From Eledone cirrhosa (Eukaryota), in the NCBI GenBank assembly GCA_964016885.1, contig OZ024742.1, forward strand, positions 177,072,001-177,136,000: a stretch of 64,000 bases of DNA, read 5' to 3'. The notes under the pieces are model-generated. The model saw only the letters and a program-made list of their open reading frames with translations, did no database searches and was not told the origin of the DNA. Shown in pieces: positions 10,551-54,124 of the stretch; position 1 is the stretch's first letter; each line of letters begins with the position of its first letter. The position numbers and the translations under genes are program-made.

Positions 10551-10760
10551 AATATAGTATTAGTTATACTATTTATGGTTATGTAAACACAAAACCTTAA
10601 GCAGTTGTAAGTATTTTACACACACCCTAAATAGTGGTAGGCAGTAATGTATTACTACCTTATTACCAGTAAGTTAAGTAGCTCAATGTAAAAACATCAG
10701 ATGATTTACAGAGCAGTTATATGAAATATAAGAATCAAAGAACTGTTCAAAACATTATTG

Positions 10761-10808
10761 TGCTTACAGCTGTTTCCTCCAAACCGAGGTTTGGATTCTT
10801 CGGAGCAA
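10761..10808 (-). ncRNA. Type-I minimal hammerhead ribozyme motif (left arm)
   Basis: Reverse complement of 15689-15736. Confidence 0.75.
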
Positions 10809-12250
10809 TTTATTAATGCATGGACAGTTATATGACCTCCTTTTCAGCCGAGAGACATACCAATACATATTCAAACATTGATGCATATTCAAACATTGTG
10901 GGTCAACATTCATTACAGAATTTAGAGTGGCAGTACACACTTCGAGATTACATTTATATTAATAGGTACAATCAAAAATCAAAGATATAGGTTAAAGTAC
11001 AACATGAAGATAAGTGGTTATATAGTGCAAATGTTATATGTGTGGCACGCATGTGCGTCTTGTTTATATAGTGTGGCAGAGAGATATGTGTGGTAGAGGC
11101 ACTTAGGTAGGTAAATAAGAGTGTTAGGTTGGTAGATCTGGTGGCAAAGTCTTTATATGATTGATATAGTCTGTGTGTGGAGAAATATTATAAGCATTAA
11201 AGATAGTGCAAGCATTAAAAGTGTTATAAGTATTGGAGATGCACAGCGCAGGGATGTCAAGTAATTCATGTACTTCGGCATTTTCATGGTCAAGGGAGTG
11301 TATATTTCGATTATATGCCTTTCACATAATCCACGACAATCCAGTTAGAGATCGTAGTCTGGTGTTCTTTAGTTCGATACAGGAGGTTGTTACGTTTCGA
11401 GAAACGCCATTGAATACCGGAAGTGTGTGTGTGGCTAAGGGGAGTTAATGCATGCGGGGAGGTAACTCTGGGGTTTCTATATCTAGCCATTAAAATGTGT
11501 CCCAATATAGACCCTAAATTCTATGGTGAGGTGCACCTTCCAAGAGAGACTTTTAAAGCATAAGGTGTACTAACTATAGAGTAGTTTAACTAAATTATGC
11601 TGAAGGTGATCATATTATTATTAAGGTGGATTAACCCATCTTAAGGTGCTACAAATGGAAATTATAGATGATGAGCGAGGATTCTAAATTAATGATCTCT
11701 GTGGTTGTAGTCTGCTCATATGACCAGGCGCGGTGATTGCAGGATTGCTTCAGGACCCAATGATCTCTGGTAAGATCTGGGTCATCGCTTGCTACATTGG
11801 ATGTCGAAAGATACTCGTCCCCAGGCAGGCCAAAGGTCAATCCGCAGTCCTCGCGACCCCTCTCTGACCGTCAGATCATCCATATACGTACAACCCGCAC
11901 GGCAGTTGCATTGCATTCACTCACTGCGCTCAGCAGCCCGGTCCTACTGGTCAACAGCGCTACTCGATTAAATCATTTTACATCTGTCTAAGGAAGGTGT
12001 TTCCTCTGCCCAACACCATCCAACCGATCAATTCATGCTCAAATTACCCTTAGAGCGGTGTAGTGCCGTCCAAGTGGGTGGATGTTGTCACACCTGCCGT
12101 AGAGGTATAAATGGGTATTTTCCCTGCGAAGGGTTCCAGAGGGATGTCGTTGTTTGTGTTATAATGGATCAGCTAGTGTTGGGTATGTAGTATAGGGTGT
12201 GTCTCTGGTGTTTGATGCTAGATGTGGTGTTAGGTTCCAGTCCGACATTG

Positions 12251-12715
12251 CTATATATAGGGCTTAAAGTTTTGGAAGGAATGTCTGAGGCGGTGCTGGC
12301 AAGTTGCAAACACCTCAGATTTTTTGTTAAGTAGGTTACGGTTGGAGAAGATAATATTGTGTGTCTCTAGTATACAGAGGTTACAGAATTTATTAGGTGG
12401 TTTGTACGAGGTCGCGCTGCCTATCACTTCCCATTTGAGTGTGTATGGTTTATTTTTAGATTTTAGATAGTGTATGTAGCTAGAAAGTGAGGTGGAGTTG
12501 GCTAGGCTGTGCTTTTTGAACGAGTGGATGTGCGAGTTATATCTGATTTTGAAGCAGTTAGAAGTGGAGCCTACATAGGTTTCTGAAGAGTTATTAGTCG
12601 TGACTGTGCATGAGTATGTGACATCCTTGGTTAGGCATTTTTTATCTAAAGGGCAGGTTCTATTAGCTCTACAGTTACAATTATTCTGTGCGTTAGTCCG
12701 CTGGTTATAATGCAA
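12251..12715 (-). CDS. PLE GIY-YIG endonuclease domain (partial ORF, left arm)
   Basis: CNCRANRTCPLDKKCL, VTY...YVGSTSNCFKIRYNSH, CNLCILE, LLNKKSE, CQHR. Confidence 0.85.
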   Translation of the reverse strand: MHYNQRTNAQNNCNCRANRTCPLDKKCLTKDVTYSCTVTTNNSSETYVGSTSNCFKIRYNSHIHSFKKHSLANSTSLSSYIHYLKSKNKPYTLKWEVIGSATSYKPPNKFCNLCILETHNIIFSNRNLLNKKSEVFATCQHRLRHSFQNFKPYI

Positions 12716-13664
12716 TGCGGAAGTCTGTGTGGCGGATATAGGATTTTGGGTGTTCGGGTTGACAACCCTGGTGTTATTACTTATACTAGTGTTATTTCTA
12801 TTGTTACTGCCGTTGCTATTGTTGCTTGCTACAGTGGTATTTAGAGGGTTTGCATCCCGTTGTGATTTTGTTTGTTGGAAGTAAGAACTAATTTTACTAT
12901 TATTGCTGCTAGCTATGTGGTATGCTAAGTTAGGCGTCGTAGAGTATGAGATTTTAATGGTGTTTTTGTTTAAGAGGTTGTGGTACTTGTGTCCTAGAGG
13001 GAAGTTTTAGTAGTGAGAAGAAAGCCCTAGGTATGTTGGTGGAGACATTTAGGTTGAAAGGAGGGTTGAAATGTATTATTTCTTCTTCTATTTTTGCTTT
13101 TAGTGTTTGGTGTGTTGCTTCCTCCTAAGGCCTCACAGTAGTTTCCATGGTAATGGTTACTTCCGGTGGCACCCTCCGCTTTGGTGTTCTTGTGGTTGCT
13201 ATTCCTATTATTAGATTTCCTCATGGACATGTTGTGCGAGATGATGTTGTAGCTATGTGTTTTCTTAGGTAGGAACTCAATTTCTATAATAGGAATAGCA
13301 ACCACAAGAACACCAAAGCGGAGGGTGCCACCGGAAGTAACCATTACCATGGAAACTACTGTGAGGCCTTAGGAGGAAGCAACACACCAAACACTAAAAG
13401 CAAAAATAGAAGAAGAAATAATACATTTCAACCCTCCTTTCAACCTAAATGTCTCCACCAACATACCTAGGGCTTTCTTCTCACTACTAAAACTTCCCTC
13501 TAGGACACAAGTACCACAACCTCTTAAACAAAAACACCATTAAAATCTCATACTCTACGACGCCTAACTTAGCATACCACATAGCTAGCAGCAATAATAG
13601 TAAAATTAGTTCTTACTTCCAACAAACAAAATCACAACGGGATGCAAACCCTCTAAATACCACT

Positions 13665-14246
13665 GTGGCAAGCAACAATAGCAACGGCAGTAACAATAGA
13701 AATAACACTAGTATAAGTAATAACACCAGGGTTGTCAACCCGAACACCCAAAATCCTATATCCACCACACAGACTTCCGCATTGCATTATAACCAGCGGA
13801 CTAACGCACAGAATAATTGTAACTGTAGAGCTAATAGAACCTGCCCTTTAGATAAAAAATGCCTAACCAAGGATGTCACATACTCATGCACAGTCACGAC
13901 TAATTACTCTTCAGAAACCTATGTAGGCTCCACTTCTAACTGCTTCAAAATCAGATATAACTCGCACATCCACTCGTTCAAAAAGCACAGCCTAGCCAAC
14001 ACCACCTCACTTTCTAGCTACATACACTATCTAAAATCTAAAAATAAACCATACACACTCAAATGGGAAGTGATAGGCAGCGCGACCTCGTACAAACCAC
14101 CTAATAAATTCTGTAACCTCTGTATACTAGAGACACACAATATTATCTTCTCCAACCGTAACCTACTTAACAAAAAATCTGAGGTGTTTGCAACTTGCCA
14201 GCACCGCCTCAGACATTCCTTCCAAAACTTTAAGCCCTATATATAG
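13665..14246 (+). CDS. PLE GIY-YIG endonuclease domain (partial ORF, right arm)
   Basis: Same domain as the left arm with two amino-acid differences (N/Y and S/T). Confidence 0.85.
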   Translation: MASNNSNGSNNRNNTSISNNTRVVNPNTQNPISTTQTSALHYNQRTNAQNNCNCRANRTCPLDKKCLTKDVTYSCTVTTNYSSETYVGSTSNCFKIRYNSHIHSFKKHSLANTTSLSSYIHYLKSKNKPYTLKWEVIGSATSYKPPNKFCNLCILETHNIIFSNRNLLNKKSEVFATCQHRLRHSFQNFKPYI

Positions 14247-15688
14247 CAATGTCGGACTGGAACCTAACACCACATCTAGCATCAAACACCAGAGACACAC
14301 CCTATACTACATACCCAACACTAGCTGATCCATTATAACACAAACAACGACATCCCTCTGGAACCCTTCGCAGGGAAAATACCCATTTATACCTCTACGG
14401 CAGGTGTGACAACATCCACCCACTTGGACGGCACTACACCGCTCTAAGGGTAATTTGAGCATGAATTGATCGGTTGGATGGTGTTGGGCAGAGGAAACAC
14501 CTTCCTTAGACAGATGTAAAATGATTTAATCGAGTAGCGCTGTTGACCAGTAGGACCGGGCTGCTGAGCGCAGTGAGTGAATGCAATGCAACTGCCGTGC
14601 GGGTTGTACGTATATGGATGATCTGACGGTCAGAGAGGGGTCGCGAGGACTGCGGATTGACCTTTGGCCTGCCTGGGGACGAGTATCTTTCGACATCCAA
14701 TGTAGCAAGCGATGACCCAGATCTTACCAGAGATCATTGGGTCCTGAAGCAATCCTGCAATCACCGCGCCTGGTCATATGAGCAGACTACAACCACAGAG
14801 ATCATTAATTTAGAATCCTCGCTCATCATCTATAATTTCCATTTGTAGCACCTTAAGATGGGTTAATCCACCTTAATAATAATATGATCACCTTCAGCAT
14901 AATTTAGTTAAACTACTCTATAGTTAGTACACCTTATGCTTTAAAAGTCTCTCTTGGAAGGTGCACCTCACCATAGAATTTAGGGTCTATATTGGGACAC
15001 ATTTTAATGGCTAGATATAGAAACCCCAGAGTTACCTCCCCGCATGCATTAACTCCCCTTAGCCACACACACACTTCCGGTATTCAATGGCGTTTCTCGA
15101 AACGTAACAACCTCCTGTATCGAACTAAAGAACACCAGACTACGATCTCTAACTGGATTGTCGTGGATTATGTGAAAGGCATATAATCGAAATATACACT
15201 CCCTTGACCATGAAAATGCCGAAGTACATGAATTACTTGACATCCCTGCGCTGTGCATCTCCAATACTTATAACACTTTTAATGCTTGCACTATCTTTAA
15301 TGCTTATAATATTTCTCCACACACAGACTATATCAATCATATAAAGACTTTGCCACCAGATCTACCAACCTAACACTCTTATTTACCTACCTAAGTGCCT
15401 CTACCACACATATCTCTCTGCCACACTATATAAACAAGACGCACATGCGTGCCACACATATAACATTTGCACTATATAACCACTTATCTTCATGTTGTAC
15501 TTTAACCTATATCTTTGATTTTTGATTGTACCTATTAATATAAATGTAATCTCGAAGTGTGTACTGCCACTCTAAATTCTGTAATGAATGTTGACCCACA
15601 ATGTTTGAATATGTATCAATGTTTGAATATGTATTGGTATGTCTCTCGGCTGAAAAGGAGGTCATATAACTGTCCATGCATTAATAAA

Positions 15689-15736
15689 TTGCTCCGAAGA
15701 ATCCAAACCTCGGTTTGGAGGAAACAGCTGTAAGCA
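15689..15736 (+). ncRNA. Type-I minimal hammerhead ribozyme motif (right arm)
   Basis: tgct-CCGAAGA-a[tccaaacc tc ggtttgga]g-GAAA-cagctg-TA-agca. Stems I and II pair; stem III is palindromic; cleavage triplet GUA. Confidence 0.75.
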
Positions 15737-15774
15737 CAATAATGTTTTGAACAGTTCTTTGATTCTTATATTTC

Positions 15775-15831
<57 letters not shown>

Positions 15832-15857
15832 ATTGTGTGTATGCATGTATATGCCTG

Positions 15858-15889
<32 letters not shown>

Positions 15890-17221: not shown

Positions 17222-17452
17222 AGGTTTTAATATAGATGAGATTCTACAGGACTAGAACTGTTTCATTCATTAGAAATCATCAGGAATCTCAGATTTCTGA
17301 TGATTTCTAAGATTCCTGAGATTCCTGATGATTTCTAATGAATGAAACAGTTCTAGTCCTGTAGAATCTCATCTATATTAAAACCTTTATACTCTGCTAT
17401 GTATTGAGTACCTTACTTACTGTGGTTACCTCCGATTCAACCCGGAATAACG
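17222..17452. mobile_element. Miniature palindrome 2 (PLE-like by architecture): 71-bp arms 17222-17292 and 17316-17386, tail 17387-17452
   Basis: Perfect inverted arms with an HHR in each; (TA)n on both flanks; no coding sequence. Confidence 0.8.
17318..17370 (+). ncRNA. Type-I hammerhead ribozyme motif (mirror copy at 17238-17290, minus strand)
   Basis: gagattc-CTGATGA-t[ttc taat gaa]t-GAAA-cag ttctagtc ctg-TA-gaatctc. Canonical core and a 7-bp stem I. Confidence 0.85.
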
Positions 17453-24522: not shown

Positions 24523-24597
<75 letters not shown>

Positions 24598-24627
24598 ATC
24601 AAAAGATGGTTAAAGGAGTTCCATATA

Positions 24628-24694
24628 TTTTATTATGCGCATTTCAAAAACAAACATCATCAAGCAATAATATTTGTGTTTTCATCAGATAAAA
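24628..24694 (-). ncRNA. Type-I hammerhead ribozyme motif (left arm)
   Basis: Reverse complement of 28354-28420. Confidence 0.85.
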
Positions 24695-25694
24695 CAGGAG
24701 AACATGATATGAAGGCTAAAAAACACTTGTGGATAGTGCAGTTTTAAATCAACATATGAAAAATGGTTTTAGATTGCTGTGTGATATTGGGAAAAATATT
24801 TTATTTAGAGAGGGGGGGGGAAGATGAAAGGGGAGGAGATGAGAGGGAGAGATGGGTGATAGAGAGAAAGAGATAGTTTTTATAACTGAGAGGAAATATA
24901 TTTTTTACATAGAGAGGTTGAAAACCGTTGGAAGATACTGTATAAATTAAAAATTTAGAAAATTAACGAAGGGAGGATATGTGCGAGGAAAAATATTTTA
25001 TTTAGGGAGGGGGGTGTGGAAAGGATGAAAAAAAGGGGGGAGGAGATGAGAGTGAAGGTGGAGAGGGAGAGATGGGTGATAGAGAGAAAGCGATAGTTTT
25101 TATAACTGAGAAAAAGATATATTGTTTTAATATAGAGAGGTTGGGAACCGTTGGAAGATAATGTATAAATTAAAGGAATTTGAAAATTAACGAAGGGAAA
25201 TTATGTATGAAGATAGAGAGAGAAAAAAAAAATAATAATGATTGTGGGTGAATATTCTAACGTCAAAAGAAGAAATGTATGTATTGTGGCAATTTCAAAA
25301 TTAGCGAAGAGAAAAATTGTTAAGGTTTGTGTGTAGAAGGATTTGAGAAAAATAATGTGAAGTTAAAGTTTGTATATGATATGTGCGAATAAAGAGTTAA
25401 TATGTATTAATAATGAGTTCGTTGATGGGGAGAAAAAAATAATAATAAATTAAGGATGAAATTGAGATTAAAAAGATTTATGATAGAGAGAAAAAATAAT
25501 AATGATTGCGGATGAATATTCAAATGACAAAAACAAATGCTATGATTTTGCGAGAAGATAGAATGAGGGTAATGAGTAAACGAGTATTATAGAGTGTATA
25601 ATGCCCTTTAAAGTAAGGTAGATGGGTATATTTTAAAGAGGTGTATGTATATGTGCCTTTGAGAAAAGATTCTAAATTGATAAAGAATTGAATA

Positions 25695-27029
25695 TTAACT
25701 GTATACTTTGTGAAAAGTTCTATGGAATTTATGCAGGCAGATAGAAAACAAATCTGAGCGTCTATTTATTATAGAATCTAGGTTAGAGATAATGGTAAAT
25801 TTTTCATTTAGGCAGAGATTACAGATTTTAGATAGAGAGCTGTTCAAGTATGAGGATGCAGAAGAAATCTTCTTCCAAAAGATGGTATATTTAATGTTTT
25901 TGTCTTTTAAGGACCATATGAGTTCTGAGAGAGCAGTGTTAGTTCTTTTAAGTTTGTATTTGAAAGATGAATGATGATTATAGAGACGAGCTTTAAAAGA
26001 GGTGGAAGTGGAGCCAAAATAGGTGAAGGAATTGGTGCTAGTTATAATTTTACATTCATAAATTAAGTTTTTATCGAGGCAATGGTTGTTGAGAGGACAT
26101 TTATTTTTAATGCGGCAGTTGCAATTAGAGAGATTATTAATGAGTGATCTAGTGTTATCTATAGAAGGAATTGGATTGGAGAAGTTGTTTGCGATAGGAA
26201 TAATAGGAATAATAGTTTCTTGATTTAGAGTTGCATTATGAACATTTAGCGAAGTTGTGTTTGACGTTGTATTTGGGTTTACAGAAGTTAGCCTAGGGTT
26301 TACAATGACGTCGGGAGTACTATTACTGTTATTATGAAATTCAATATTGGAAGGAAGAGATTTAGTATTTAATATTTTGTTGTTGTGTTTAGAGATGATG
26401 TTGGAAATATTGGAGGATGTAGAATACGAAAATTTGATGGTGTGTTTGTTAAATATTTTACTATAGATATGTGAGGGAGGGAAGCATTTATTTAAGGCAC
26501 TAAAAAATAATTTAGGAATATTGTTATTAATAGAGATGGAGAAAGGAGCATTATACCAGATTATGTTTTTGTATCTAGGTCTTTTATTAAAATTATTGGA
26601 ATGGTTATGATTAATTATTCTACTGTAAGTTTTTCTAGAATTTGTTTCTTTATTATATTTGATTTTATCTGGATAGCCGGCTTTAGAAAGTGCGTTATTA
26701 TAGTAATTGGCGTTAGCATCAGATATGTTTTTATTAGAAGATATGTTAGATATTCTATTTCCAATATTATTAACTATAGCATTCTTGATATTGGTAGGAT
26801 GGTTAGATTTAAAGTTAACATAATTAAGGTTCTCATTGTTTTTATGGTAAGGGTAATATAGGCCAGTGTCAAGATTAAGAGACACATCCAAGAAATTAGC
26901 TAGTTTGATACTATTATCAAATTCAATTTTTAGGTTATGTTGGTTAAAGAGATTACGTATATTGTTCTTAATAATATTAAGTTTAACTATATTGCAATTT
27001 AGGATAGTAAAGAGTCCATCGTCACGATA
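25695..27029 (-). CDS. PLE RT C-terminal half + GIY-YIG (5'-truncated ORF)
   Basis: YRDDGL at about 27012-27029, FLDVSLNL, SNHP, IWYNAPFS, KFSYS, CNCRIKNKCPLNNHCL, YFGSTSTSFKARLYNH, CNLCLNEK. Confidence 0.88.
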   Translation of the reverse strand, partial: YRDDGLFTILNCNIVKLNIIKNNIRNLFNQHNLKIEFDNSIKLANFLDVSLNLDTGLYYPYHKNNENLNYVNFKSNHPTNIKNAIVNNIGNRISNISSNKNISDANANYYNNALSKAGYPDKIKYNKETNSRKTYSRIINHNHSNNFNKRPRYKNIIWYNAPFSISINNNIPKLFFSALNKCFPPSHIYSKIFNKHTIKFSYSTSSNISNIISKHNNKILNTKSLPSNIEFHNNSNSTPDVIVNPRLTSVNPNTTSNTTSLNVHNATLNQETIIPIIPIANNFSNPIPSIDNTRSLINNLSNCNCRIKNKCPLNNHCLDKNLIYECKIITSTNSFTYFGSTSTSFKARLYNHHSSFKYKLKRTNTALSELIWSLKDKNIKYTIFWKKISSASSYLNSSLSKICNLCLNEKFTIISNLDSIINRRSDLFSICLHKFHRTFHKVYS

Positions 27030-28353
27030 AATCCACCGCGAAGTTGAGGAACTAGCGTGACGATGGACTCTTTACTATCCTAAATTGCAATATAGTTAAA
27101 CTTAATATTATTAAGAACAATATACGTAATCTCTTTAACCAACATAACCTAAAAATTGAATTTGATAATAGTATCAAACTAGCTAATTTCTTGGATGTGT
27201 CTCTTAATCTTGACACTGGCCTATATTACCCTTACCATAAAAACAATGAGAACCTTAATTATGTTAACATAAAAACAATGAGAACCTTAATTATGTCTCT
27301 AACCTAGATTCTATAATAAATAGACGCTCAGATTTGTTTTCTATCTGCCTGCATAAATTCCATAGAACTTTTCACAAAGTATACAGTTAATATTCAATTC
27401 TTTATCAATTTAGAATCTTTTCTCAAAGGCACATATACATACACCTCTTTAAAATATACCCATCTACCTTACTTTAAAGGGCATTATACACTCTGTAATA
27501 CTCGTTTACTCATTACCCTCATTCTATCTTCTCGTAAAATCATAGCATTTGTTTTTGTCATTTGAATATTCATCCGCAATCATTATTATTTTTTCTCTCT
27601 ATCATAAATCTTTTTAATCTCAATTTCATCCTTAATTTATTATTATTTTTTTCTCCCCATCAACGAACTCATTATTAATACATATTAACTCTTTATTCGC
27701 ACATATCATATACAAACTTTAACTTCACATTATTTTTCTCAAATCCTTCTACACACAAACCTTAACAATTTTTCTCTTCGCTAATTTTGAAATTGCCACA
27801 ATACATACATTTCTTCACCTACAATTATTATTTTTATTTTTTTTTTCTCTCTATCTTCATACATAATTTCCCTTCGTTAATTTTCAAATTCCTTTAATTT
27901 ATACATTATCTTCCAACGGTTCCCAACCTCTCTATATTAAAACAATATATCTTTTTCTCAGTTATAAAAACTATCTCTTTCTCTCTATCACCCATCTCTC
28001 CCTCCCCACCTTCACTCTCATCTCCTCCCCCCTTTTTTTCATCCTTTCCACACCCCCCTCTCTAAATAAAATATTTTTCCTCGCACATATCCTCCCTTCG
28101 TTAATTTTCAAAATTTTTAATTTATACAGTATCTTCCAACGGTTTTCAACCTCTCTATGTAAAAAATATATTTCCTCTCAGTTATAAAAACTATCTCTTT
28201 CTCTCTATCACCCATCTCTCCCTCTCATCTCCTCCCCTTTCATCCTTCCCCCCCCTCTCTAAATAAAATATTTTTCCCAATATCACACATCAATCTGCAA
28301 TTAAAACTGCACTATCCACAAGTGTTTTTTAGCCTTCATATCATGTTCTCCTG

Positions 28354-28420
28354 TTTTATCTGATGAAAACACAAATATTATTGCTTGATGATGTTTGTTT
28401 TTGAAATGCGCATAATAAAA
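28354..28420 (+). ncRNA. Type-I hammerhead ribozyme motif (right arm)
   Basis: ttttat-CTGATGA-[long stem II aaacacaaatatta...tgatgtttgttttt]-GAAA-tgcgca-TA-ataaaa. Canonical core, palindromic stem III. Confidence 0.85.
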
Positions 28421-28543
28421 TATATGGAACTCCTTTAACCATCTTTTGATCTTATATTATGCATACTCCAGTCCCACAAACTGTAGAGTGCTTCTTATCC
28501 GATATCTGCATTGCTTTATTGTACTACAATAAAACTCACCTCC

Positions 28544-29042
<499 letters not shown>

Positions 29043-30948: not shown

Positions 30949-31000
<52 letters not shown>

Positions 31001-31076
31001 AAAAAGGGATGAAATCGAAAATGCAACTGAAGTCTTAATTTTTTTTTTTTTTTTAAATATATATATTTATTTGGTT

Positions 31077-31114
31077 CCTTTACCGGTTTCGCAGTTCTTC
31101 TGCTTTTCAAAAGG
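31077..31114 (-). ncRNA. Hammerhead-like motif with variant core (UUGAAAA)
   Basis: cctt-TTGAAAA-gcag aagaa ctgc-GAAA-ccgg-TA-aagg. Stems are intact. The right arm has lost the core by deletion (near 37288). Confidence 0.6.
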
Positions 31115-31626
31115 TGAGTTGAGATGGAGGGTCTGTGGTTTTTCTCACATCTGGTTGGTCTCTAAATGTTACTTGTTTTATATGGAAAAACTGGCTCGAA
31201 AACCAGGTTTTTCGAGAAGTAATTTGATTGGTTTGTCAATAATTATAATAAATTTCGCGCCAGTTCGCGTTACAATAGTTCTTCAAATAAGAGAGGGGGG
31301 GGGGGTTTGTCACAGGTTGTTTTTTCATATGAGTGTTTGAATTTCTTTTTACTTGAAAAAATGAGGCTCACGAAGGCTTTTTTTTGGTTGGTTATAAATG
31401 AAATTTGGCTGTCACGTGAACAAGTTTTCATTACATTTTTGCGCCCCTATTTGGAAAACTATTCTGTAGTCTTTATAGTGAATGTTATGACAATGGAGAG
31501 ATAGTGGTCAAGGGAAAAGGGATTGGGAGAAATGTTCTGGTTCAGTGAATATGGCAGCTGTCAGAGTTCAGGTGTCAGAGTTCAGATTTTCTATTGAGAC
31601 TGAAGATATGTGTTTATTTGTGTGCT

Positions 31627-31659
<33 letters not shown>

Positions 31660-32153: not shown

Positions 32154-33770
32154 TTAAACCTTATTTAATGTTGGTCTATATTTTTGAATAAACATATTTT
32201 CCTTATTTATTCGCATTTGTTCTGTTGTATTGTTAGCGCAAAGGTAAAATGGGAAGACTTGGAATTTGGGTGTCTTATTACTTGCGCAAATGTCTAGATG
32301 TGCACTTCGTGGTATTTGTCTCGTGGTTGGATCTCGTAATTGTTGGCGATGAACTGTCATTCTGTTTCTGAGTGTGAGTTTAGTTTGTCCTATATAATCT
32401 TCATTGCATCCTTTACATTTAATGGCATAAATTAGATTTTTTGATGAGCAAGTGAAGTGATTTTTTACAGTAAAATTTTGTCCTGATTTAAATGTATACG
32501 TGTTGCCTTCAATGAGGTGAGTGCAGGTTCCACAATTAGAGCGACCACATTTTTTGATACTTGGTTGTGGGTTTGTGGTAGGTAATTTGGCATTGGTGAG
32601 TAATGTTTTCAGTGATTTTGGTTGTCTTTTGCTTTTGATTATTTTGTGTGTTTCAAGGGTTTTTTTCATTCTTGGGTTTTGTTTTAGTAGTGGGATGTTA
32701 TTGTGAATAGTGTTGTAAGCTTCCGCATTTCTTGGGTTGTGTGTTGAGATATATGATAGAATATTGGACGTACCTTGAATTTGTTTCTGTTTCCGTAATT
32801 CATCAATGCCTATTGCTTTAGCCCTTTCTATTCCATTATTTATTAGTAATAGTGGGTACTCTCTCTCAAGTAGAATTTCCTTTAATTCTTGAAGTCTTTT
32901 ATTTCGCGTTTCATAATTGTAGACAATTGTGCAAATTCTTCTTGCTAGGTTAAAAGGAATGTTCGTCTTCGTGTGCTTTGGATGGTTGGAGGTGAATAGC
33001 AGATATTGTTTGGAATCTGTTGGTTTGTAGTGTATGTCAGTTTCGATATGTGTGTCTTTTTTTTTTATTAAGATGTCCAGAAATGGGAGTTGATCTTGGC
33101 TGTATTCCATTGTGAATTGGATGTGGTTATTGATGCCGTTTATTAAGTTTTTGAAATCCTTCAGTTGGTCGAGTGTGTGGGACCAAAGAATGAGGCAATC
33201 ATCCAAGTAGCGTTTCCAATTCTCTGATAAATATTTGTGGAAGTATATCTGGACTTCTAAGTATGCCATGACTAAGTTGGCATAAGTTGGAGCGGCTTTT
33301 GTGCCCATCGCAGTCCCCGATATTTGCTTGTAAGTATTGCCATCGAAATCAAAAAAGTTGTTCTGTAGGATGAATTTTAATCCCTCGGTGATGAAGCTTT
33401 TTTCTATTCTGTCAGGTATCTCATTGGGATATTTCTCTAGCCAGAATCCTATTGCTTCTAGTCCGTATTGGTGTGGGATCGTTGTGTAGAGATTCACTAC
33501 ATCGAAAGACACAATAATAGTGTCGTTGTTGACATGTTTGGGGAGGTGGTTTAAGAGGTCCAGATCGTCTCTTACAAGGCTTGGTATGTGTTTCAGTATT
33601 GGTTTCAGTAGTATGTCTATAAAGTTGCTCAATCTGTGTGTTTCACGTTGTGGGCCCGCTACAATTGGTCTTAATTTAAGGTCTGTGGGGTATTGTGTGT
33701 TCACGCAGGCTGAGGTGGATTGTTTACAGGCATCGTTGATTATTTTACATTTGTGGATCTTCGGAAGTCC
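32154..33770 (-). CDS. PLE RT + GIY-YIG, 5'-truncated, stop-free (left arm)
   Basis: GLPKIHK, LRPIVAG, SFDVVNLYT, GTAMGT, RYLDD, LPFLD, CGRSNCGTC, LIYAIKC..C..YIGQT..LRNR, TLN. Confidence 0.92.
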   Translation of the reverse strand, partial: GLPKIHKCKIINDACKQSTSACVNTQYPTDLKLRPIVAGPQRETHRLSNFIDILLKPILKHIPSLVRDDLDLLNHLPKHVNNDTIIVSFDVVNLYTTIPHQYGLEAIGFWLEKYPNEIPDRIEKSFITEGLKFILQNNFFDFDGNTYKQISGTAMGTKAAPTYANLVMAYLEVQIYFHKYLSENWKRYLDDCLILWSHTLDQLKDFKNLINGINNHIQFTMEYSQDQLPFLDILIKKKDTHIETDIHYKPTDSKQYLLFTSNHPKHTKTNIPFNLARRICTIVYNYETRNKRLQELKEILLEREYPLLLINNGIERAKAIGIDELRKQKQIQGTSNILSYISTHNPRNAEAYNTIHNNIPLLKQNPRMKKTLETHKIIKSKRQPKSLKTLLTNAKLPTTNPQPSIKKCGRSNCGTCTHLIEGNTYTFKSGQNFTVKNHFTCSSKNLIYAIKCKGCNEDYIGQTKLTLRNRMTVHRQQLRDPTTRQIPRSAHLDICASNKTPKFQVFPFYLCANNTTEQMRINKENMFIQKYRPTLNKV

Positions 33771-36262
33771 CCTGCCCACACAGAGCCTGTTCCAAAACCA
33801 TAGATCCCAGCCCACACAAAGGAACCAAATCTACAACCCGGACTATCAACAAACCGAACCTCAATACGTCCGAAACTTCTATACAAGACCACACAACAAC
33901 AGGGGAAATACCATTAGATATAATAATACCAATGAAAAAACATTCCAGAAAAATCATTTTTTAGACCAAGGCTACAGGACTCACGACACCCGGTGGCACA
34001 AACCGATTTTGAAAAACCGAAAATAATTAACATTTCAAATACAAACACTCAGCCCAACAAGTAAAAATTCTCTCCAAAAGTCTGAAATTCACACCAACAC
34101 CACAATATCCTAACCCCAACGAGATAAATGACGATATCTCACACTTCTGTAGAAAATTACGTCTCACAGAGGAATTCTTTGACAAGGAGAATAACGACGA
34201 ATCAATTGTACGGAATAAAAGCAGCTACAACCCAACAAAAGGTAGAAACAGAGTTCTGGACAAATTTTGTGACCACATAGCTACCTTCCCATACCATGAA
34301 CTACCGCAACCTAAACCCAAACCCAACACAAGTCGAAGGGAATGGGAGATTATCCATGAACTAAAAATCAATCCGGACATTGTAATTAAGGAAGCGGACA
34401 AGGGAAGTACTGTTGTCATTATGGAGGCTGAAAAATATAAAAATTCTATGTTCTCTCTCTTACAAAATGCTAATGACTATGAAAGAGTAAAAAACTACCA
34501 GCAATCAAAAATAATGACCAAATTAAACACACTGATTTATCGATACCAGGAAGACCTAACTAAAAAGGAACGCGATTATTTAACAAATTTTGAATACAAA
34601 ACCAGCAACCTTTACGGACTTCCGAAGATCCACAAATGTAAAATAATCAACGATGCCTGTAAACAATCCACCTCAGCCTGCGTGAACACACAATACCCCA
34701 CAGAACTTAAATTAAGACCAATTGTAGCGGGCCCACAATGTGAAACACACAGATTGAGCAACTTTATAGACATACTACTGAAACCAATACTGAAACACAT
34801 ACCAAGCCTTGTAAGAGACGATCTGGACCTCTTAAACCACCTCCCCAAACATGTCAACAACGACACTATTATTGTGTCTTTCGATGTAGTGAATCTCTAC
34901 ACAACGATCCCACACCAATACGGACTAGAAGCAATAGGATTCTAGCTAGAGAAATATCCCAATGAGATACCTGACAGAATAGAAAAAAGCTTCATCACCG
35001 AGGGATTAAAATTCATCCTACAGAACAACTTTTTTGATTTCGATGGCAATACTTACAAGCAAATATGGGGGACTGCGATGGGCACAAAAGCCGCTCCAAC
35101 TTATGCCAACTTAGTCATGGCATACTTAGAAGTCCAGATATATGAACAGTCCAAATCAAAATACGGATTGAACTTCCACAAATATTTATCAGAGAATTGG
35201 AAACGCTACTTAGATGATTGCCTCATTCTTTGGTCCCACACACTCGACCAACTGTAGGATTTCAAAAACTTAATAAACGGCATCAATAACCACATCCAAT
35301 TCACAATGGAATACAGCCAAGATCAACTCCCATTTCTGGACATCTTAATCAAAAAAAAAGACACACATATCGAAACTGACATACACTACAAACCAACAGA
35401 TTCCAAACAATATCTGCTATTCACCTCCAACCATCCAAAGCACACGAAGACGAACATTCCTTTTAACCTAGCAAGAAGAATTTGCACAATTGTCTACAAT
35501 TATGAAACGCGAAATAAAAGACTTCAAGAATTAAAGGAAATTCTACTTGAGAGAGAGTACCCACTATTACTAATAAATAATGGAATAGAAAGGGCTAAAG
35601 CAATAGGCATTGATGAATTACGGAAACAGAAACAAATTCAAGGTACGTCCAATATTCTATCATATATCTCAACACACAACCCAAGAAATGCGGAAGCTTA
35701 CAACACTATTCACAATAACATCCCACTACTAAAACAAAACCCAAGAATGAAAAAAGCCCTTGAAACACACAAAATAATCAAAAGCAAAAGACAACCAAAA
35801 TCACTGAAAACATTACTTACCAATGCCAAATTACCTACCACAAACCCACAACCAAGTATCAAAAAATGTGGTCGCTCTAATTGTGGAACCTGCACTCACC
35901 TCATTGAAGGCAACACGTATACATTTAAATCAGGACAAAATTTTACTGTAAAAAATCACTTCACTTGCTCATCAAAAAATCTAATTTATGCCATTAAATG
36001 TAAAGGATGCAATGAAGATTATATAGGACAAACTAAACTCACACTCAGAAACAGAATGACAGTTCATCGCCAACAATTACGAGATCCAACCACGAGACAA
36101 ATACCACTAAGTGCACATCTAGACATTTGCGCAAGTAATAAGACACCCAAATTCCAAGTCTTCCCATTTTACCTTTGCGCTAACAATACAACAGAACAAA
36201 TGCGAATAAATAAGGAAAATATGTTTATTCAAAAATATAGACCAACATTAAATAAGGTTTAA
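33771..36262 (+). pseudogene. PLE ORF (N-terminal region, RT, GIY-YIG) with premature stops
   Basis: LKFTPTP, FCRKLRL.E.F and IKEADKG lie upstream of the RT. TAG stops at 34943 and 35255; YLDD at about 35207. Confidence 0.9.
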
Positions 36263-36754
36263 TATACATTATGTCAACACCACAATATGACATACACACA
36301 CACACATAACACCTACTTTAGAAAATAAAAACCCGAACTAAATAAACCTTAAACATACGTTTGCACTGGCAATACAACAGCAAACACGAAAAAGTCAGGA
36401 AAATATGTTCATTCAAAAATATTCCTACTAAAGGAATCATTTTCCTACACACACACATACACACACACACAATATATATATATATATATATATATTCTCT
36501 ACATCTTAACATGCTAACCATACTCCCACACACATAACACCCATACACACACATAAAAAACCCCACACCTACAACACCCTCCCCATTTCTACTAATAGAA
36601 CCACTTTCCTACACACATATATATATACACACACACAAAAAATATATATTCTCTCTATCTAACATACTCGCACACACACACATAACACCCATATACACAC
36701 ACACACAACTCCCTCCCCATCTCTACTAATAGAATCATCTTCCAATACACACAT

Positions 36755-36787
<33 letters not shown>

Positions 36788-37432
36788 AGCACACAAATAA
36801 ACACAAATAAACACATATCTTCAGTCTCAATAGAAAATCTGAACTCTGACACCTGAACTCTGACACTGAACCAGAACATTTCTCCCAATCCCTTTTCCCT
36901 TGACCACTATCTCTCCATTGTCATAACATTCACTATAAAGACTACAGAATAGTTTTCCAAATAATGTAATGAAAACTTGTTCACGTGACAGCCAAATTTC
37001 ATTTATAACCAACCAAAAAAAAGCCTTCGTGAGCCTCATTTTTTCAAGTAAAAAGAAATTCAAACACTCATATATGAAAAAAAAACCTGTGACAACCCCC
37101 CCCCCCCTCTCTTATTTGAAGAACTATTGTAACGCGCACTGGCGCGAAATTTATTATAATTATTGACAAACCAATCAAATTACTTCTCGAAAAACCTGGT
37201 TTTCGAGCCAGTTTTTCCATATAAAACAAGTAATATTTAGAGACCAACCAGATGTGAGAAAAACCACAGACCCTCCATCTCAACTCATCGAAACCGGTAA
37301 AGGAACCAAATAAATATATATATTTTAAAATAAATAAGACTTCAGTTGCATTTTCGATTTCATCCCTTTTTCTTTATACTTCCACTCGTGTAGGACACCT
37401 CGGTTATTTTTCATTTTGTAAAAAAAAACCTC

Positions 37433-37554
<122 letters not shown>

Positions 37555-37665: not shown

Positions 37666-38221
37666 ACAATATATAAAAGAATCACATTTTTGTTTAATGC
37701 ATTTAAGAGCTAACGATCGTTTCTTCCAGACAATTGTCTGGTTAACATCGGAGCATACACAATGTTAAAACAAATAAATTCCTAATAATTAGAACATTCA
37801 TTGATATATATATACTCTTCGTATATTAATTTCAGGTATTATTCCTTGCATCTATGATATAGCTTCAAAACAGCTTCTTTTTATAATACTTCTGAATGTG
37901 TTGCTGTCTTTTCATTGTGATATTCTTTTGCTGTCATTCTTCTGTATATTGTAACTGACACTAATAATTATAATTAGTCTTCTCAAATATAATGTATCTT
38001 AATGAACGTTCTATGAATTAGGAATTTATTTGTTATAACATTGTATCTGCTCCGATGATTCCAGACATTTGTCTGGAAGAAACGATCATTAGCTAAAAAA
38101 TTTGATTGTTTTCTATGTTGTATTTCTGCTCCGTAGTATATCTAATATTTTACTTTGAGTTGATTTTGTTACTGGTAACTGGTAAATACAAAAATTACCC
38201 TTATCTTATTTACAATTGTAT
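37666..38221. mobile_element. Diverged miniature palindrome 8 (PLE-like by architecture): arms about 37666-37806 and 37995-38123, tail to about 38221
   Basis: Inverted arms with mismatches, an HHR in each, TA-rich flanks. Confidence 0.7.
38049..38093 (+). ncRNA. Hammerhead motif (mirror copy at 37709-37754, minus strand)
   Basis: gct-CCGATGA-[ttccagac attt gtctggaa]-GAAA-cgatc(a/g)-TT-agc. The left copy keeps the palindromic cgatcg. Confidence 0.65.
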
Positions 38222-39922: not shown

Positions 39923-39987
<65 letters not shown>

Positions 39988-40458
39988 TTCGTTTCTGAAT
40001 TTGTTTAGCAAGATTCTTTATCTGAAATCGTGTGTTGAAAACGATATTGTTATACTTTGGGAGGGTCATGTTGCCAATAACAAACACACGAACCAGTTGC
40101 TTTCACTTCAATTTATTATATATTTATAAATTTACAAGTTTATAAATTTATAAATTTCTGGTTGGTTGGTTGGTTCCACAACCAGATAGTTGTTTATATA
40201 TAGTCATAGTCCTTTCGTCACACACTCTGTGACCTCTTCAGTGACCGGGGATTCCTTTCATTGTTTCTGTGCCTCTCCTTTGTTCTGTCCTACGCTATTT
40301 TGTTTCTGTGTGTGTGTTGTGTACTCAGTCTGCGCATGCGCCACATCCGGGTGTCTGTGTGTGTTTATGTTCATTTATCTATTTGTTTATTTATTTACTT
40401 ATTTACATGTTGCTGGTTGGTTGTTTGTTCTATGTGTGTGTGTGTTTTCATTTTGTCT

Positions 40459-40894
40459 TTAATTGTAAGTTGTGATGTTGCTGTTCCACTCATATTTTCT
40501 ATTTAATTTTGGTTGTAATTCTTTTATGTTTATTGCCTCTGTAATTTGTCTAAACATTGCGTCTTTTCTGTGCGTAGATTCTATATTTATTTCTATGTTC
40601 TCTAATTTACCCTTGTGTTCTATCTTAGCATGTTGGTAGAGTACATATGATTCTTTATTATCTTGAAGGTCTCGCCAGTGTTCATTTATCCGTTCCCCTA
40701 TACTACGAGCTGTCTCCCCTATGTACACTATATTTTTGTCTCTACATTTTCCTTCAGTACATCTTATGCTATACACTACATTTCTAGTTTTACAGTTAAT
40801 ATGGGGGCTTATTTCACAGGTTATACATTTCTTATCTATACATGAGGGTCTTTGGAAAGGGTATGTCTTGCTAATAAGTGTTTTTACGGAGGTA
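40459..40894 (-). CDS. PLE GIY-YIG endonuclease domain (Neptune/Nematis-like, 5'-truncated)
   Basis: CIDKKCITC, NCKTRNVVYSIRC, YIGETARSIGERINEH, RQITEAINI, PKLNRKYEW. Confidence 0.85.
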
Positions 40895-40896
40895 CC

Positions 40897-40941
40897 AGTC
40901 ACTGAAGAGGTCACAGAGTGTGTGACGAAAGGACTATGACT
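40897..40941 (+). ncRNA. Type-I minimal hammerhead motif (mirror copy at 40202-40246, minus strand)
   Basis: agtca-CTGAAGA-g[gtcac agagtgt gtgac]-GAAA-ggac-TA-tgact. Confidence 0.8.
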
Positions 40942-41187
40942 ATATATAAACAACTATCTGGTTGTGGAACCAACCAACCGACCAGAAATTTATAAATTTA
41001 TAAACTTGTAAATTTATAAATATATAATAAATTGAAGTGGAAAGCAACTGGTGCGTGTGTTTCTTATTGGCAACATGACCCTCCCAAAGTATAACAATAT
41101 ATATATTTATATATATGTATATATGTGTATATGTGTGTTTCTATATATATAGATATACGCATATATATATATAATATATATATATGT

Positions 41188-47365: not shown

Positions 47366-47368
<3 letters not shown>

Positions 47369-47726
47369 AAGAAAAAGGGATGAAATCGAAAATGCAACTG
47401 AAGTCTTATTTTTTTAAAAATATATATATTTATTTGGTTCCTTTACCGGTTTCGCAGTTCTTCTGCTTTTCAAAAGGTGAGTTGAGATGGAGGGTCGGTG
47501 GTTTTTCTCACATCAGATGTGAGAAAAACCACAGACCCTCCATCTCAACTCACCTTTTGAAAAGCAGAAGAACTGCGAAACCGGTAAAGGAACCAAATAA
47601 ATATATATATTTTTAAAAAAATAAGACTTCAGTTGCATTTTCGATTTCATCCCTTTTTCTTTATACTTCCACTCGTGTAGGACACGTCGGTTATTTTTCA
47701 TTTTGTAAAAAAAACCTCACTTTCTA

Positions 47727-47727
<1 letters not shown>
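47366..47727. mobile_element. Miniature palindrome 5, same family as palindrome 4: arms 47366-47514 and 47516-47664, tail to 47727
   Basis: Near-perfect hairpin with a 1-nt spacer; sequence matches 30995-31152 and 37250-37440; (TA)n flanks. Confidence 0.92.
47553..47590 (+). ncRNA. Hammerhead-like motif with variant core (mirror copy at 47440-47477)
   Basis: cctt-TTGAAAA-gcagaagaactgc-GAAA-ccgg-TA-aagg. Confidence 0.6.
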
Positions 47728-50576: not shown

Positions 50577-50657
<81 letters not shown>

Positions 50658-50712
50658 GGAGGTGAGTGTTATTGTAGCACTCAACAGTTTATAGGACTGG
50701 GGTATAAATAAT

Positions 50713-50819
50713 TGTTTCCACTTTAGGCACAAGGCCAGCAATTATCCAGTGCATTACTGGTACTTTATTTTATCGACCCCGTAAGGATGAAAGGCAAAGT
50801 CAACCTCGGCGGGATTTGA
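50713..50819 (-). mobile_element. SINE family A with ~17-bp target-site duplication
   Basis: actgg(g/c)gtataaataat at 50696-50712 and 50820-50836. Confidence 0.85.
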
Positions 50820-51140
50820 ACTGGCGTATAAATAATATAAGGTCAAAAGATGGTTAAAAGCGTTTCATGTATTTTATTATGCGCATTTCAAAAACAAATA
50901 TCATCATGGGATGATATTTGCGTTCTCATCACATAAAATAGGAAGACATGATATGAAGCTTAAAAAACACTTACGAGCAGTGAAGTGTTAAATCTACATA
51001 TGAAAAATAAAATAAGATGGATATGTGAGATTGGGAAAAAAAGAAGGAAGGGGGAAGGAAAAGGTAAGGAAGAAGAAGAAAGAAAATAAAGGATGACGGA
51101 GGAGAAGTATGAGAAGGTAGGATGAGAGAAGATGAGAAAT

Positions 51141-51209
<69 letters not shown>

Positions 51210-51604
51210 TCTTTAATACTGAGAAACACTGTCTCACAGAGAGAAATTAAAAAAACGTTGTAAGATAATACATAATTTAAAAAAATCTTGAAATTAAAAG
51301 TTAATGAGGTTTATGAATGGTGATGTTTATGATTAAAGAAAAAGGAATTAAGAAAATTTAAGGAAGAAAAAATATATAACGGAAAAAAAATGTAAGGAAG
51401 AAAAAATATATAACGGCAAAAAAATATATGTTTACAAAAAAATTACTAATGGTAATATTAGTATATATTAAAATTATAGTTTGTATGGCCAAGAATATAA
51501 GGAAAATGCTATAGTTAGTAGTAATATGAGTTAAGAAGTAATTGAGAAGTAAAAGTTACAGATTAAAAATTAGAAATTAAAAATGAAAAAAGGAGAAAAG
51601 AAAT

Positions 51605-51845
51605 TGCCCTGTTAGAACTAAATGTCCTCTTAATAACCAATGTCTTGATAAAAATTTAGTGTATGAATGTAAGGTTATAACTGGTACTAATTTCTTTAGC
51701 TATTTTGGTTCCACTTCCACTTCCTTTATAGCAAGATTTTATAATCACAATTCGTATTTTAAATACCTACTTAAAAGAACTAACACGGCACTCTCAGAAC
51801 TCACATGGTCCTTAAAAGACAAGAATATTAACTACAACATATTAT
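51605..51845 (+). pseudogene. PLE GIY-YIG fragment
   Basis: KCPLNNQCLDKNLVYECKVITGTNFFSYFGSTSTSFIARFYNH is close to the palindrome-3 protein. Confidence 0.85.
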
Positions 51846-51851
51846 TACTGA

Positions 51852-51965
51852 TCTGAGTTAAAATCTCACCGAGGTTAACTTTGCCTTTCATCCTTACGGG
51901 GTCGATAAAATAAAGTACCAGTAATGTACTAGGTAATTGCTGGCCTTGTGCCTAAAATAGAAACA
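51852..51965 (+). mobile_element. SINE family A with 'attattact' target-site duplication
   Basis: Duplication at 51841-51849 and 51966-51974. Confidence 0.8.
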
Positions 51966-52680
51966 ATTATTACTAACTATAGCATTTTCCTTATATTCAT
52001 AGCCATACAAACTATATTTTTAATATATACTAATATTACCATTAGAAAATTTTGTAAACATATATTTTTTTGACGTTATATATTTTTTCTTCCGTAAATT
52101 TTCTTCTTTCTTCTCTCCTTTCGTGCTCGTATTAAACCTATTATTTACTTTTTCATATTACAATACATAGAAACAAATTTAGACCCTAACTAATTCCTCT
52201 AAGTTCATAATTCATTTAATTTCTTCTTCATTCACCTTATCTCCTTAATATTTTTATTTTAATAATACATATTAATAAATTCCCTTTCGCACATATTATT
52301 AAACCCTTCAATATATAAACCTTAAATAAATACTATTCTTAATTCCTGTATCTTTAATCATAAACATCACCATTAATTTCAATTTTTTTTAGATTATGTA
52401 TTATCTTACAATGGTTTTTTTTAATTTCTCTCTGTGAGACAGTGTTTCTCAGTATTAAAAGCTATCTCTCTCTCTCCCTCTCACTCATTTCTCCTGCTCT
52501 CCCATCCTACCTTCTCATACTCCTCCCCCGTCATCCTTTATTTTCTTTCTTCCTCTTCCTTACCTTTTAATTCCCCTTTCCTTCTTTTTTTCCCAATCTC
52601 ACATATCCATCTTAGTCTATTTTTCATTTAACACTTCACTGCTCGCAAGTGTTTTTTACGCTTCATATCATGACTCCCTA

Positions 52681-52747
52681 TTTTATCTGATGAGAACGCA
52701 AATATCATCCCATGATAATATTTGTTTTTGAAATAGGCATAATAAAA
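52681..52747 (+). ncRNA. Type-I hammerhead motif (mutated mirror copy at 50872-50938)
   Basis: ttttat-CTGATGA-gaacgcaaatatcatcccatgataatatttgttttt-GAAA-taggca-TA-ataaaa. The left copy keeps tgcgca but its core reads GTGATGA. Confidence 0.75.
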
Positions 52748-54124
52748 TACATGGAACTCTTTTAACCATCTGTTGATCTTATTCCTATATATATATATAT
52801 ATATATAGGAATAAGAATTTGAACATGAAATTTTAGTCTCTAAGAAGAATTACTTACAACGAGTTATAACTTTACTGGTTTCACTAGTTTCGTGATTTTC
52901 AAATGTTAAGTGAAATGAACAGATATGCCGCCACGTAACTTGCATCAAACTAATGTTCGAAAGTTCTTCCTGTTTTATGTAAAAAAATGTGCTTGAGATT
53001 GCTATATGTTGGAAGTACAATTTAATAGGTTGAGGAATTCGTGTGTTCAAGGGAAGTTGGAAGTGCCTTTGCTGCAATGGTAAACGTTTTTAAAAATACA
53101 GGGATTTTGCTTATGTATATCAGCGTATGTGTGTTATTTTTATTCGAATCAGATGCCAAAAAAGCTTTGTTGCACCCTGTGTCAAACTGAATATCTTTGA
53201 GACATATGGTACACGGGTCTATAGAATTATCAACGATTGCACATTTATCCATACGACCAAATTGTTTGTTTGATCAAGCAGCATGTTCGAAACCGGCGGA
53301 AGTCCCTCTCGTATTAAAATGTATTTAGCACTGGCTTCCCGTAAGGACATAGACATACAACCTGCATTTACGAATCAGCAGAAGTTGGCCAATTGTGTCA
53401 TTCCGATTAACAATATGCCTTCATTAATATAATTTCACATTGTTACAGTTGAAAACACGAAACCAATTTGAAAATAACTTTTATTCCCGGTTGTTAAATT
53501 CAGTCAATTGCACAGTATGTTAATGTAAAACTATGTATATTTCAGCTGTTACAACCAAAGGAGAGATAGCGCATTGGAAGAATTTTGAAATATTGTTAAA
53601 TAAATGTAGAAACCATAATGGTCAGTCAATTAAAAACACCTTACATTGAATCAAGTGTGTTCGTCAGTGTTAAAGGTTGCGAAAATTCGATTGTCAGAAT
53701 TAACAATTTGAAATTGGTATCTGTCAAATAATTCTCATTCCTTTCATTGAACGTCTTGTAATATTTAACAATTTATCTGGAGGGTTTAAAATATGATAAA
53801 TACCAACGAATGTAATGTCAAATCAATTTTCAACATATATTTACTTACGGCAAAATATTACGGCATATTTCATGTAAATTGAGGGTGTTGATGTAATGAA
53901 ACCTATTTTAATGACAATTTGATGCGTGTTTCAGAAATTCTTAGAAAATGTTTTCCCTACGTCTCTCAGCAATATTCTAATTTTGCAACTCGATATTTCA
54001 ATGAACATTGTCAAGGAACGTCGGCTAACTTGCCTTGTAACACTCTTCATACCAGAAATGTAATACATATCCTGATGCCATAGCACTCAGTTTAATGGTA
54101 GATATGATGTATTCTAATGGACGC

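Follow-up and report, generated by a model that had tools for sequence, protein, structure and literature searches.

The window analysed here, 64,000 nucleotides of contig OZ024742.1 from Eledone cirrhosa, contains eight inverted pairs of sequence. Self-BLAST of the window finds them where a first-pass annotation had placed them, with 79-99% identity between arms. All eight are Penelope-like (PLE) insertions of six families (about six had been supposed), Hydra-like and Neptune-like. Mapped to natural full-length copies, their coding strands run outward as annotated, with ORFs on the minus strand in left arms and on the plus strand in right arms, and (TA)n lies on both flanks of all eight, in degenerate form at element 5. 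The annotation had the arms truncated on their 5' sides at different points, which is half true: in elements 1, 3 and 7 the two arms end no more than about 80, 23 and 2 nt apart. It did not mention that in each of the eight pairs one arm carries a tail (its end is called T) and the other stops at a short, tail-less end (S).

Element 1 belongs to family A (Hydra-like). Its left arm (10552..13291, minus strand) ends at T, with a 161-nt tail at 10554-10717, a hammerhead-like core at 10803 and a GIY-YIG-type C-terminus at 12251-13006; the right arm (13286..15779, plus) overlaps it by 6 nt and runs past a core at 15694 to S. Element 2 (17222..17452) is a short palindrome of family B, with the S arm on the left (core at 17283, minus) and the T arm on the right (core at 17325, plus; tail of about 65 nt). 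Element 3, of family C (Hydra-like), has a left arm (24592..27051, minus) with the short end S, a core at 24688 and an ORF containing RT thumb and EN at 25695-27071, and a right arm (27053..28547, plus) with a core at 28360, a tailed end T of 90 nt and an internal deletion of about 1 kb at 27274/27277. The left arm of element 4, of family D (Neptune-like), occupies 30995..33770 (minus), with end S, a U3-A8 core at 31110 and RT and GIY-YIG at 32154-33830; the right arm (33766..37440, plus) overlaps it by 5 nt at the joint, ends at T with a tail of about 67 nt, retains RT and GIY-YIG with stops and has lost part of its core through a short deletion. Element 5 (37666..38221) is of an old family with an A-like hammerhead; an S-like arm on the left (core at 37751, minus) and a tailed arm on the right (core at 38052, plus), 86% alike, enclose a spacer at 37812-37991. 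In element 6, of family E (Neptune- or Nematis-like), the left arm (39984..40896, minus) bears the tailed end T (56 nt), a core at 40241 and GIY-YIG at 40459-40953, and the right arm (40895..41100, plus) has a core at 40902 and ends at S. Element 7 (47366..47727) is a short palindrome of family D, its left S arm reaching -148 and its right T arm -150 (template positions relative to S), with cores at 47473 (minus) and 47557 (plus). Element 8 (50654..52782), an old pair of family C whose middle is rearranged, has a tailed left arm with a nested repeat of about 115 bp at 50707-50822 and an S arm on the right, the two 79-92% alike.

A scan of the window against Rfam gave 123 matches, none at the gathering score and none to a hammerhead family, so hammerhead cores were sought with a pattern made for the purpose. 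Candidate cores with stems I and II, the minimal motif of EN+ PLEs, occur in all six families. A stricter pattern gave 12 matches against 0-1 cores in each of 20 shuffles, a comparison that leaves aside the cores of elements 1 and 5, which fit a relaxed pattern (C at position 4). Folding z-scores of the cores are weak (-0.8 to -2.8). The U3-A8 variant is already known (PMC4209133). Hammerhead-like cores, as annotated, are present in both arms of elements 1, 2, 3, 6 and 7; element 4 has one core only, and in elements 5 and 8 one near-intact core is accompanied by a degenerate one.

Pfam recognizes RVT_1 and GIY-YIG in family D and GIY-YIG in family E. The fragments of families A and C gave no Pfam match and are assigned by sequence motifs. 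Near full-length ORFs exist for families D and A and partial ones for C and E, and RT is followed by a C-terminal GIY-YIG within one ORF, as in EN+ PLEs. Partial tandems through the pseudo-LTR (pLTR) are found in family D (L113, unit 4713 bp), family A (L165, L175 and L176, unit about 4.2 kb) and family E (L183/L223), and none was seen for families B and C or element 5. Family A combines DKT, a CxCx5C linker, CxxC/CxH, the absence of CCHH and a (TA)n target, with RWR in place of RWK, which is the Hydra clade set as given in the part of PMC8557442 consulted. Family C, translated from a copy without the N-terminus, shares the linker, CxxC and CxH, and both families share the target and the hammerheads; the same source puts Hydra clade elements generally under 3 kb, against the longer unit of family A, whose placement here rests on motifs. 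Family D has GLKF, DKG, Cx4CxxC and CCHH-like residues, and family E DKSG and Cx4CxxC, motifs common to the Neptune and Nematis clades.

How general is the pairing of S with T? Exact patterns match the genome 11,632 times for family D, 25,743 for E, 7,634 for C and 2,365 for A, with 5,194 short ends for B. The insertions examined lie in the initial portion of a single contig, and their recovery by exact patterns biases them towards young copies and hides T arms under about 20 nt. In family D, all 56 divergent pairs and all 76 mapped pairs (84 entries minus five duplicates and three complex cases) join one S arm to one T arm. The same is true of 25/25 pairs in family A, 27/28 in E, 18/19 in C, where the pattern is blind to S versus T and ends were resolved by fetching the loci, and 2/2 in B, where the pattern misses tailed ends and a single locus was resolved. 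Across the five families, T lies 56-165 nt beyond S, and TA-rich motifs are found at both sites. The exceptions are L199 (T+T), L111 (a small, old S+S pair among the entries dropped), L074 (ambiguous) and L208, which is S+S yet mirrors about 4 kb of flank. TA is present on both flanks of 74 of the 76 family D pairs. Inversion had been thought the usual outcome, and in family D it is the majority: 40 loci comprise 26 inverted, 13 solo and one ambiguous, an inverted share of about 60-65%. Solo insertions occur with either end type. As the annotation also had it, inversion duplicates kilobases of coding sequence; overlap between arms reaches 4.4 kb.

The lengths of the two arms are coupled. Family D has 58 short-short pairs, 17 long-long and one mixed, where about 27 mixed would be expected (P 5e-16); family C has seven, eleven and none (P 3e-5). 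The short class reflects a fixed 5' end, with 59 of 117 family D arm ends at -144 to -152, and 6/7 solo S copies of short length begin there too (-146 to -149). Among the 64 insertions outside that class, 11 pairs tie within 20 nt, against 2.0 in permutations. Several family D ties fall at self-complementary AT-rich spots, where annealing could also yield ties. When one arm extends further 5' by more than 20 nt it may be either one (S/T/tie: D 18/13/45, A 9/7/5, E 6/6/2, C 11/1/6). Leaving out five family E entries with unreliable joints, S goes further in 44 pairs, by up to 4.5 kb and also where the two arms are 100% alike, against 27 pairs for T. Arms overlap in nearly all pairs, by no more than about 22 nt in 4/76 of family D; the T arm stops 5-22 nt beyond S in L031, L051, L132 and L146, and in L240 it halts inside the tail, so that the arms do not overlap at all. 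At least two bases are shared at 25 of 53 flush or overlapping joints (chance 15%), and filler lies at the joint in 23 of 76. A separate short, non-autonomous family within D was considered and rejected, as no site among 217 positions distinguishes the short from the long class, a comparison of low power. Hammerhead cleavage was likewise rejected as the source of the fixed 5' end: the cut in family D would fall near -77, and few arms end there.

The two arms also share a source haplotype. Non-CpG variants shared between arms are concordant rather than discordant by 73:2 in family A, 47:3 in C and 78:11 in E (198 to 16 together), counts inflated by linked sites in a few copies. Arms diverge less within than between insertions (A 0.2 versus 3.1%, C 0.7 versus 1.8%, E 1.2 versus 4.3%, D 0.8 versus 1.4%), and no insertion clearly mixes subfamilies in the sets of 20 (A), 18 (C) and 17 (E). 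The haplotypes are equally compatible with one RNA and with two RNAs transcribed from the same locus, and the pattern would also result if gene conversion acted between the arms.

The general form of these insertions, an inverted 5'-truncated copy with a one-sided tail, a hammerhead and a (TA)n target, is in print (PMC8557442, PMC3846280). The EN+ PLE unit, as in Pen2a_Av (PMC3846280; Fig. 2 of PMC8557442) and Penelope of D. virilis (PMC2377424), has the same RT with C-terminal GIY-YIG, pLTR partial tandems, pLTR hammerhead and adjacent head-to-head 5'-truncated copy, the tail often at one end. There, in the portions consulted, the tail is optional and 30-40 bp long, whereas here it measures 56-165 nt and sits on exactly one arm in all but a few pairs; those portions mention neither coupled lengths nor shared haplotypes. 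The closest biochemistry is that of PAc, the Poseidon of Anolis carolinensis (PMC11167929), which in vitro nicks and extends both strands of an AT-rich target from two internal start sites flanking the tail, and for which a dimer is predicted. In PAc the start site is reported to be alike between strands and to have no homology to the cut DNA, while here each site is used once and both are TA-rich; the accessible part of the paper gives no account of inverted units.

L1 offers another precedent. In the twin priming of Ostertag and Kazazian (2001), two DNA ends reportedly prime on one RNA and the inverted product is joined by microhomology. Its arms are said not to overlap and its second site to vary, whereas in these insertions each site is fixed and nearly all pairs have overlapping arms. 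A search of openly accessible literature found neither the coupling of arm lengths nor a model with one RNA.

I propose, with a probability of roughly 55%, that these palindromes arise by twin priming of a single RNA at its two TA-rich sites and that the arms are duplicated through strand displacement. The GIY-YIG nuclease would nick both strands of (TA)n; one 3'-OH would anneal at T and the other at S of the same pLTR copy, and both would be copied towards the RNA 5' end. The T-primed enzyme might stall near S, leaving arms that barely overlap, or displace the S cDNA, making both arms long, after which the two antisense cDNA ends would be joined by microhomology-mediated repair. When priming falls in the 5' pLTR, synthesis would run off a putative fixed 5' end of the RNA (near -150 for family D and -165 for family C) and yield palindromes of about 300 bp; a start in the 3' pLTR would produce arms of kilobases, and a solo copy would result if one of the two primings failed. 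The portions of the PLE literature consulted do not describe strand displacement by a PLE enzyme; this, and the lack of homology reported between the PAc start site and the cut DNA, count against the proposal. A more specific version falls a little short of an even bet: that the twin priming is programmed across Hydra- and Neptune-like clades, a dimer holding the two (TA)n ends on a single RNA at two fixed sites, the enzyme behind strand-displacing the cDNA ahead of it, which would yield two copies of one transcript in a palindrome, with the tail as the spacing between primers and the repeated short units at family A start sites as a record of telomerase-like realignment.

The annotation had each end primed on its own RNA. 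Both target ends do appear primed, but independent RNAs predict S+S and T+T pairs, mixed lengths and mixed haplotypes, and because all of these are nearly absent that part of the claim is disfavoured: the coupled lengths and haplotypes favour one RNA template for both arms. The idea can be rescued if the two RNAs come from the same source locus and the protein, as an asymmetric dimer, imposes S as one start and T as the other. Long duplications without strand displacement, greater length of either arm and solo copies would all follow, the T+T pair L199 would fit easily, and the dimer agrees with that predicted for PAc in the portion of PMC11167929 seen. An extra rule is then needed for the use of the same pLTR copy on both RNAs (one mixed pair in 76) and for the excess of ties; the lack of clearly mixed subfamilies weighs against it, and T arms stalling just past S are not predicted. 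I regard this reading as improbable, if deserving of attention.

The printed model for EN+ PLE inversion is self-priming on an antisense template. In a fold-back reading of this kind, one tailed cDNA, or an antisense RNA as proposed in PMC3846280 (seen in part), snaps back and is copied to S, and later central deletions make the arms unequal. Shared haplotypes, many near-perfect centres and the strict pairing of S with T would all follow, and later deletions do happen, as in element 3. Symmetric truncation, however, cannot count as proof of it in the short class, given the fixed 5' end. Unless deletions followed, the tailed arm would have to be the longer one in every pair, yet more often it is the S arm; the fixed 5' end is where solo S copies begin, L240 has no overlap, and another PLE starts at S in vitro (PMC11167929, likewise seen in part). 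Fold-back seems to me distinctly unlikely, since the longer arm may be either one, overlap is slight or absent in some pairs, and solo copies exist with each end type. The annotation would have taken a barcode shared by both arms as its sign; for the first two of these reasons, one RNA primed twice fits such sharing better. Least probable by far are assembly mirrors or later inverted duplications. L208 is a mirror (99.2% over 3.3 kb of flank), and in public reads for 12900-17700 (4 of 12 runs) the family is present and, among the pieces listed, none bridges the centre of element 1 or gives a clear empty site. A mirror would copy tail and flank alike, whereas here the ends differ by a fixed rule, the flanks differ and the arms diverge by up to 21%.

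The origin of tandem and inverted PLE structures is a named open problem (PMC8557442, section 15, in the portion seen). The rules of S with T, of coupling and of haplotype weigh against both the self-priming model in print and a pair of RNAs chosen independently. Priming at fixed sites with realignment, if it occurs, would bear on the link between PLEs and telomerase, whose enzymes are sisters. The thousands of such palindromes in this genome probably give rise to hairpin RNA and make it locally unstable.

Self-comparison of the window recovers all eight head-to-head inverted pairs of Penelope-like elements (PLEs; elements 1 to 8) where the first-pass annotation had placed them. Its claim that the arms are joined 5'-to-5' is borne out by mapping onto long natural copies in this genome: left arms lie on the minus strand, right arms on the plus strand, and the joint falls at their 5'-truncated ends. 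The predicted six or so families are present: Hydra-like A (element 1) and C (elements 3 and 8), B (element 2), Neptune-like D (elements 4 and 7), Neptune- or Nematis-like E (element 6) and an old A-like family (element 5). A Pfam search matches GIY-YIG in D and E and finds no such match in A and C, which carry Hydra-clade motifs as listed in PMC8557442. Hammerhead-like cores, also foreseen, occur in all six families. That of D is of the U3-A8 type; those of A and element 5 (putative cores at 15694, 10803 and 38052) have at position 4 a C where U is usual, and this C is conserved among family A copies and element 5. The assembly measures 3.0 Gb, and exact matches to these families run into thousands.

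The window holds other repeats. A 155-bp direct repeat (22167-22320 and 22699-22853, 98.7% identical), each copy of which contains a hammerhead-core-like motif, is possibly a retrozyme or a tandem pseudo-LTR (pLTR) of another family. A U3-A8 hammerhead-like motif at 43772-43804 (minus strand) lies just ahead of, and opposite to, a LINE-type reverse transcriptase (RT) frame at 43840-45404 (plus strand). A non-LTR retrotransposon that combines RT with a nuclease-like C-terminal region is present as two decayed copies (4156-7378 and 18736-22161), 86% alike. Seven copies of a SINE-like dispersed repeat of 100-170 bp lie at 1238-1345, 9237-9346, 48533-48690, 50704-50822, 51852-51975, 62130-62315 and 63284-63444, two of them nested in element 8.

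In all eight window pairs one arm stops at a short, tail-less end (S) and its partner extends 56-165 nt beyond, to a tailed end (T). The rule holds for 56 of 56 family D divergent pairs within 10 kb among the matches listed for the two patterns (74 of the 100 for S, those within range of the T list, against 100 for T) and for all 76 mapped D loci (84 rows less 5 duplicates and 3 complex loci, one of which, L111, contains a small old S+S pair). It holds likewise for 25/25 in family A, 2/2 in B, 27/28 in E (L199 is T+T) and 18/19 in C. In the C exception, L208, the mirrored stretch takes in about 4 kb of flank, which makes it a different kind of event. An inverted duplication, 99% identical and including this flank, is centered on a family C copy at L208, L221 and L222 (G000:C1 near 35.31-35.32 Mb); it reflects either later fold-back or a mirror made in assembly. 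In read-through copies S and T each fall within a TA-rich motif belonging to the element, which probably lets the target anneal at these sites; TA-like sequence flanks 74 of the 76 D pairs on both sides. The TA flanks of one PLE family also receive insertions of others, which gives nested clusters (L074, L120, L144, L089).

I propose, as the most likely reading, two priming events on a single RNA, at the T and S sites of one and the same pLTR copy. The enzyme behind would either stall near S or displace the cDNA ahead of it, and the two cDNA ends would be joined afterwards. If priming took place in the 5' pLTR, palindromes of about 300 bp would result; if in the 3' pLTR, palindromes of kilobases. 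Nicking, priming, displacement and transcription start are all steps that I infer. The mechanism would operate like L1 twin priming, which yields inverted parts without overlap, a feature that nearly all of these PLE pairs lack.

That inversion is the usual outcome agrees with the first 40 loci matching the D hammerhead core, classed by eye as 26 inverted, 13 solo and 1 ambiguous. An inverted unit can match with either of its arms, and my rough correction for this gives about 60% inverted. Solo D copies stop at either T or S. Six of the seven short solo S copies seen start at -146 to -149 relative to S, directly after TA-rich sequence, the same fixed end as in paired arms. This makes it likely that S serves for priming in its own right. 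Some family A copies repeat the terminal 7-10 bases, next to the TA flank, up to several times over at S ends (L165, L233, L235, L239, L240) and T ends (L176, L177, L240), which looks like realignment of the enzyme once it has started, in the manner of telomerase; such a repeat begins in about 11 of 47 tail-less family A rows, counted by eye.

The first-pass annotation had two DNA ends primed, each on its own RNA. Freely chosen RNAs are disfavored by several observations. Arms form two classes, short with a hard 5' end and long, and both arms of an insertion share a class: D has 58 short pairs, 17 long and 1 mixed, against about 27 mixed expected, and C has 7, 11 and 0 (long pairs were fetched deliberately, by total length, which would have caught mixed pairs too). 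No site distinguishing the classes was found in D. Among the 64 pairs not in the fixed-end class, 11 have arm ends no more than 20 nt apart, where permutation gives 2.0. Finally, arms agree in haplotype, the variant set of the source copy, although each family has several: concordant to discordant counts at shared non-CpG sites, linked and from few copies and so not independent, are 73:2 in A, 47:3 in C and 78:11 in E. Two transcripts from one locus, or gene conversion, would likewise yield agreeing arms, so separate RNAs stay in contention as a doubtful reading.

If instead a tailed cDNA snapped back and the second arm were copied from it, that arm would have to be contained in the first, yet the arm that extends further is S in 44 pairs and T in 27, and 58 pairs are ties (S/T/tie: D 18/13/45, A 9/7/5, E 6/6/2, C 11/1/6; the count omits L208, L210, element 8 and seven E rows, five for unreliable joints and two not scored as S+T). 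Moreover, the T arm halts 5-22 nt beyond S in four D pairs, and at L240 inside the tail, leaving arms without overlap. Unequal arms like these could also arise if a perfect hairpin later lost its center, and deletions do happen (element 3), so fold-back copying keeps a slim chance.

Joints do not separate these readings from one RNA primed twice. In D, 53 of 76 are flush or overlapping, 25 of these by at least 2 bases (chance 15%) and 9 by at least 4 (chance 2.6%), which fits microhomology-mediated joining; the other 23 contain filler, some of it copied from the arms. Multi-piece joints with several short stretches copied from the nearby arm (L105 near 3740-3800; L115 near 5752-5793) resemble the products of polymerase-theta-type repair.

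Published precedents are several. PMC8557442 describes PLEs that target microsatellites and include a 5'-truncated copy in inverted orientation, the tail often being confined to one end; PMC3846280 names head-to-head the most frequent PLE arrangement and proposes self-priming on an antisense template; PMC4209133 reports hammerhead pairs on opposite strands, 100-700 bp apart; and in PMC11167929 a Poseidon protein in vitro nicks and extends both strands, with two start sites, one on either side of the tail. The form of the insertions is therefore not new. The strict end rule, arm coupling and a twin-priming model for PLEs were not found in a search of the open-access literature. The architecture was already known; the constraints on the PLE mechanism are the new part.
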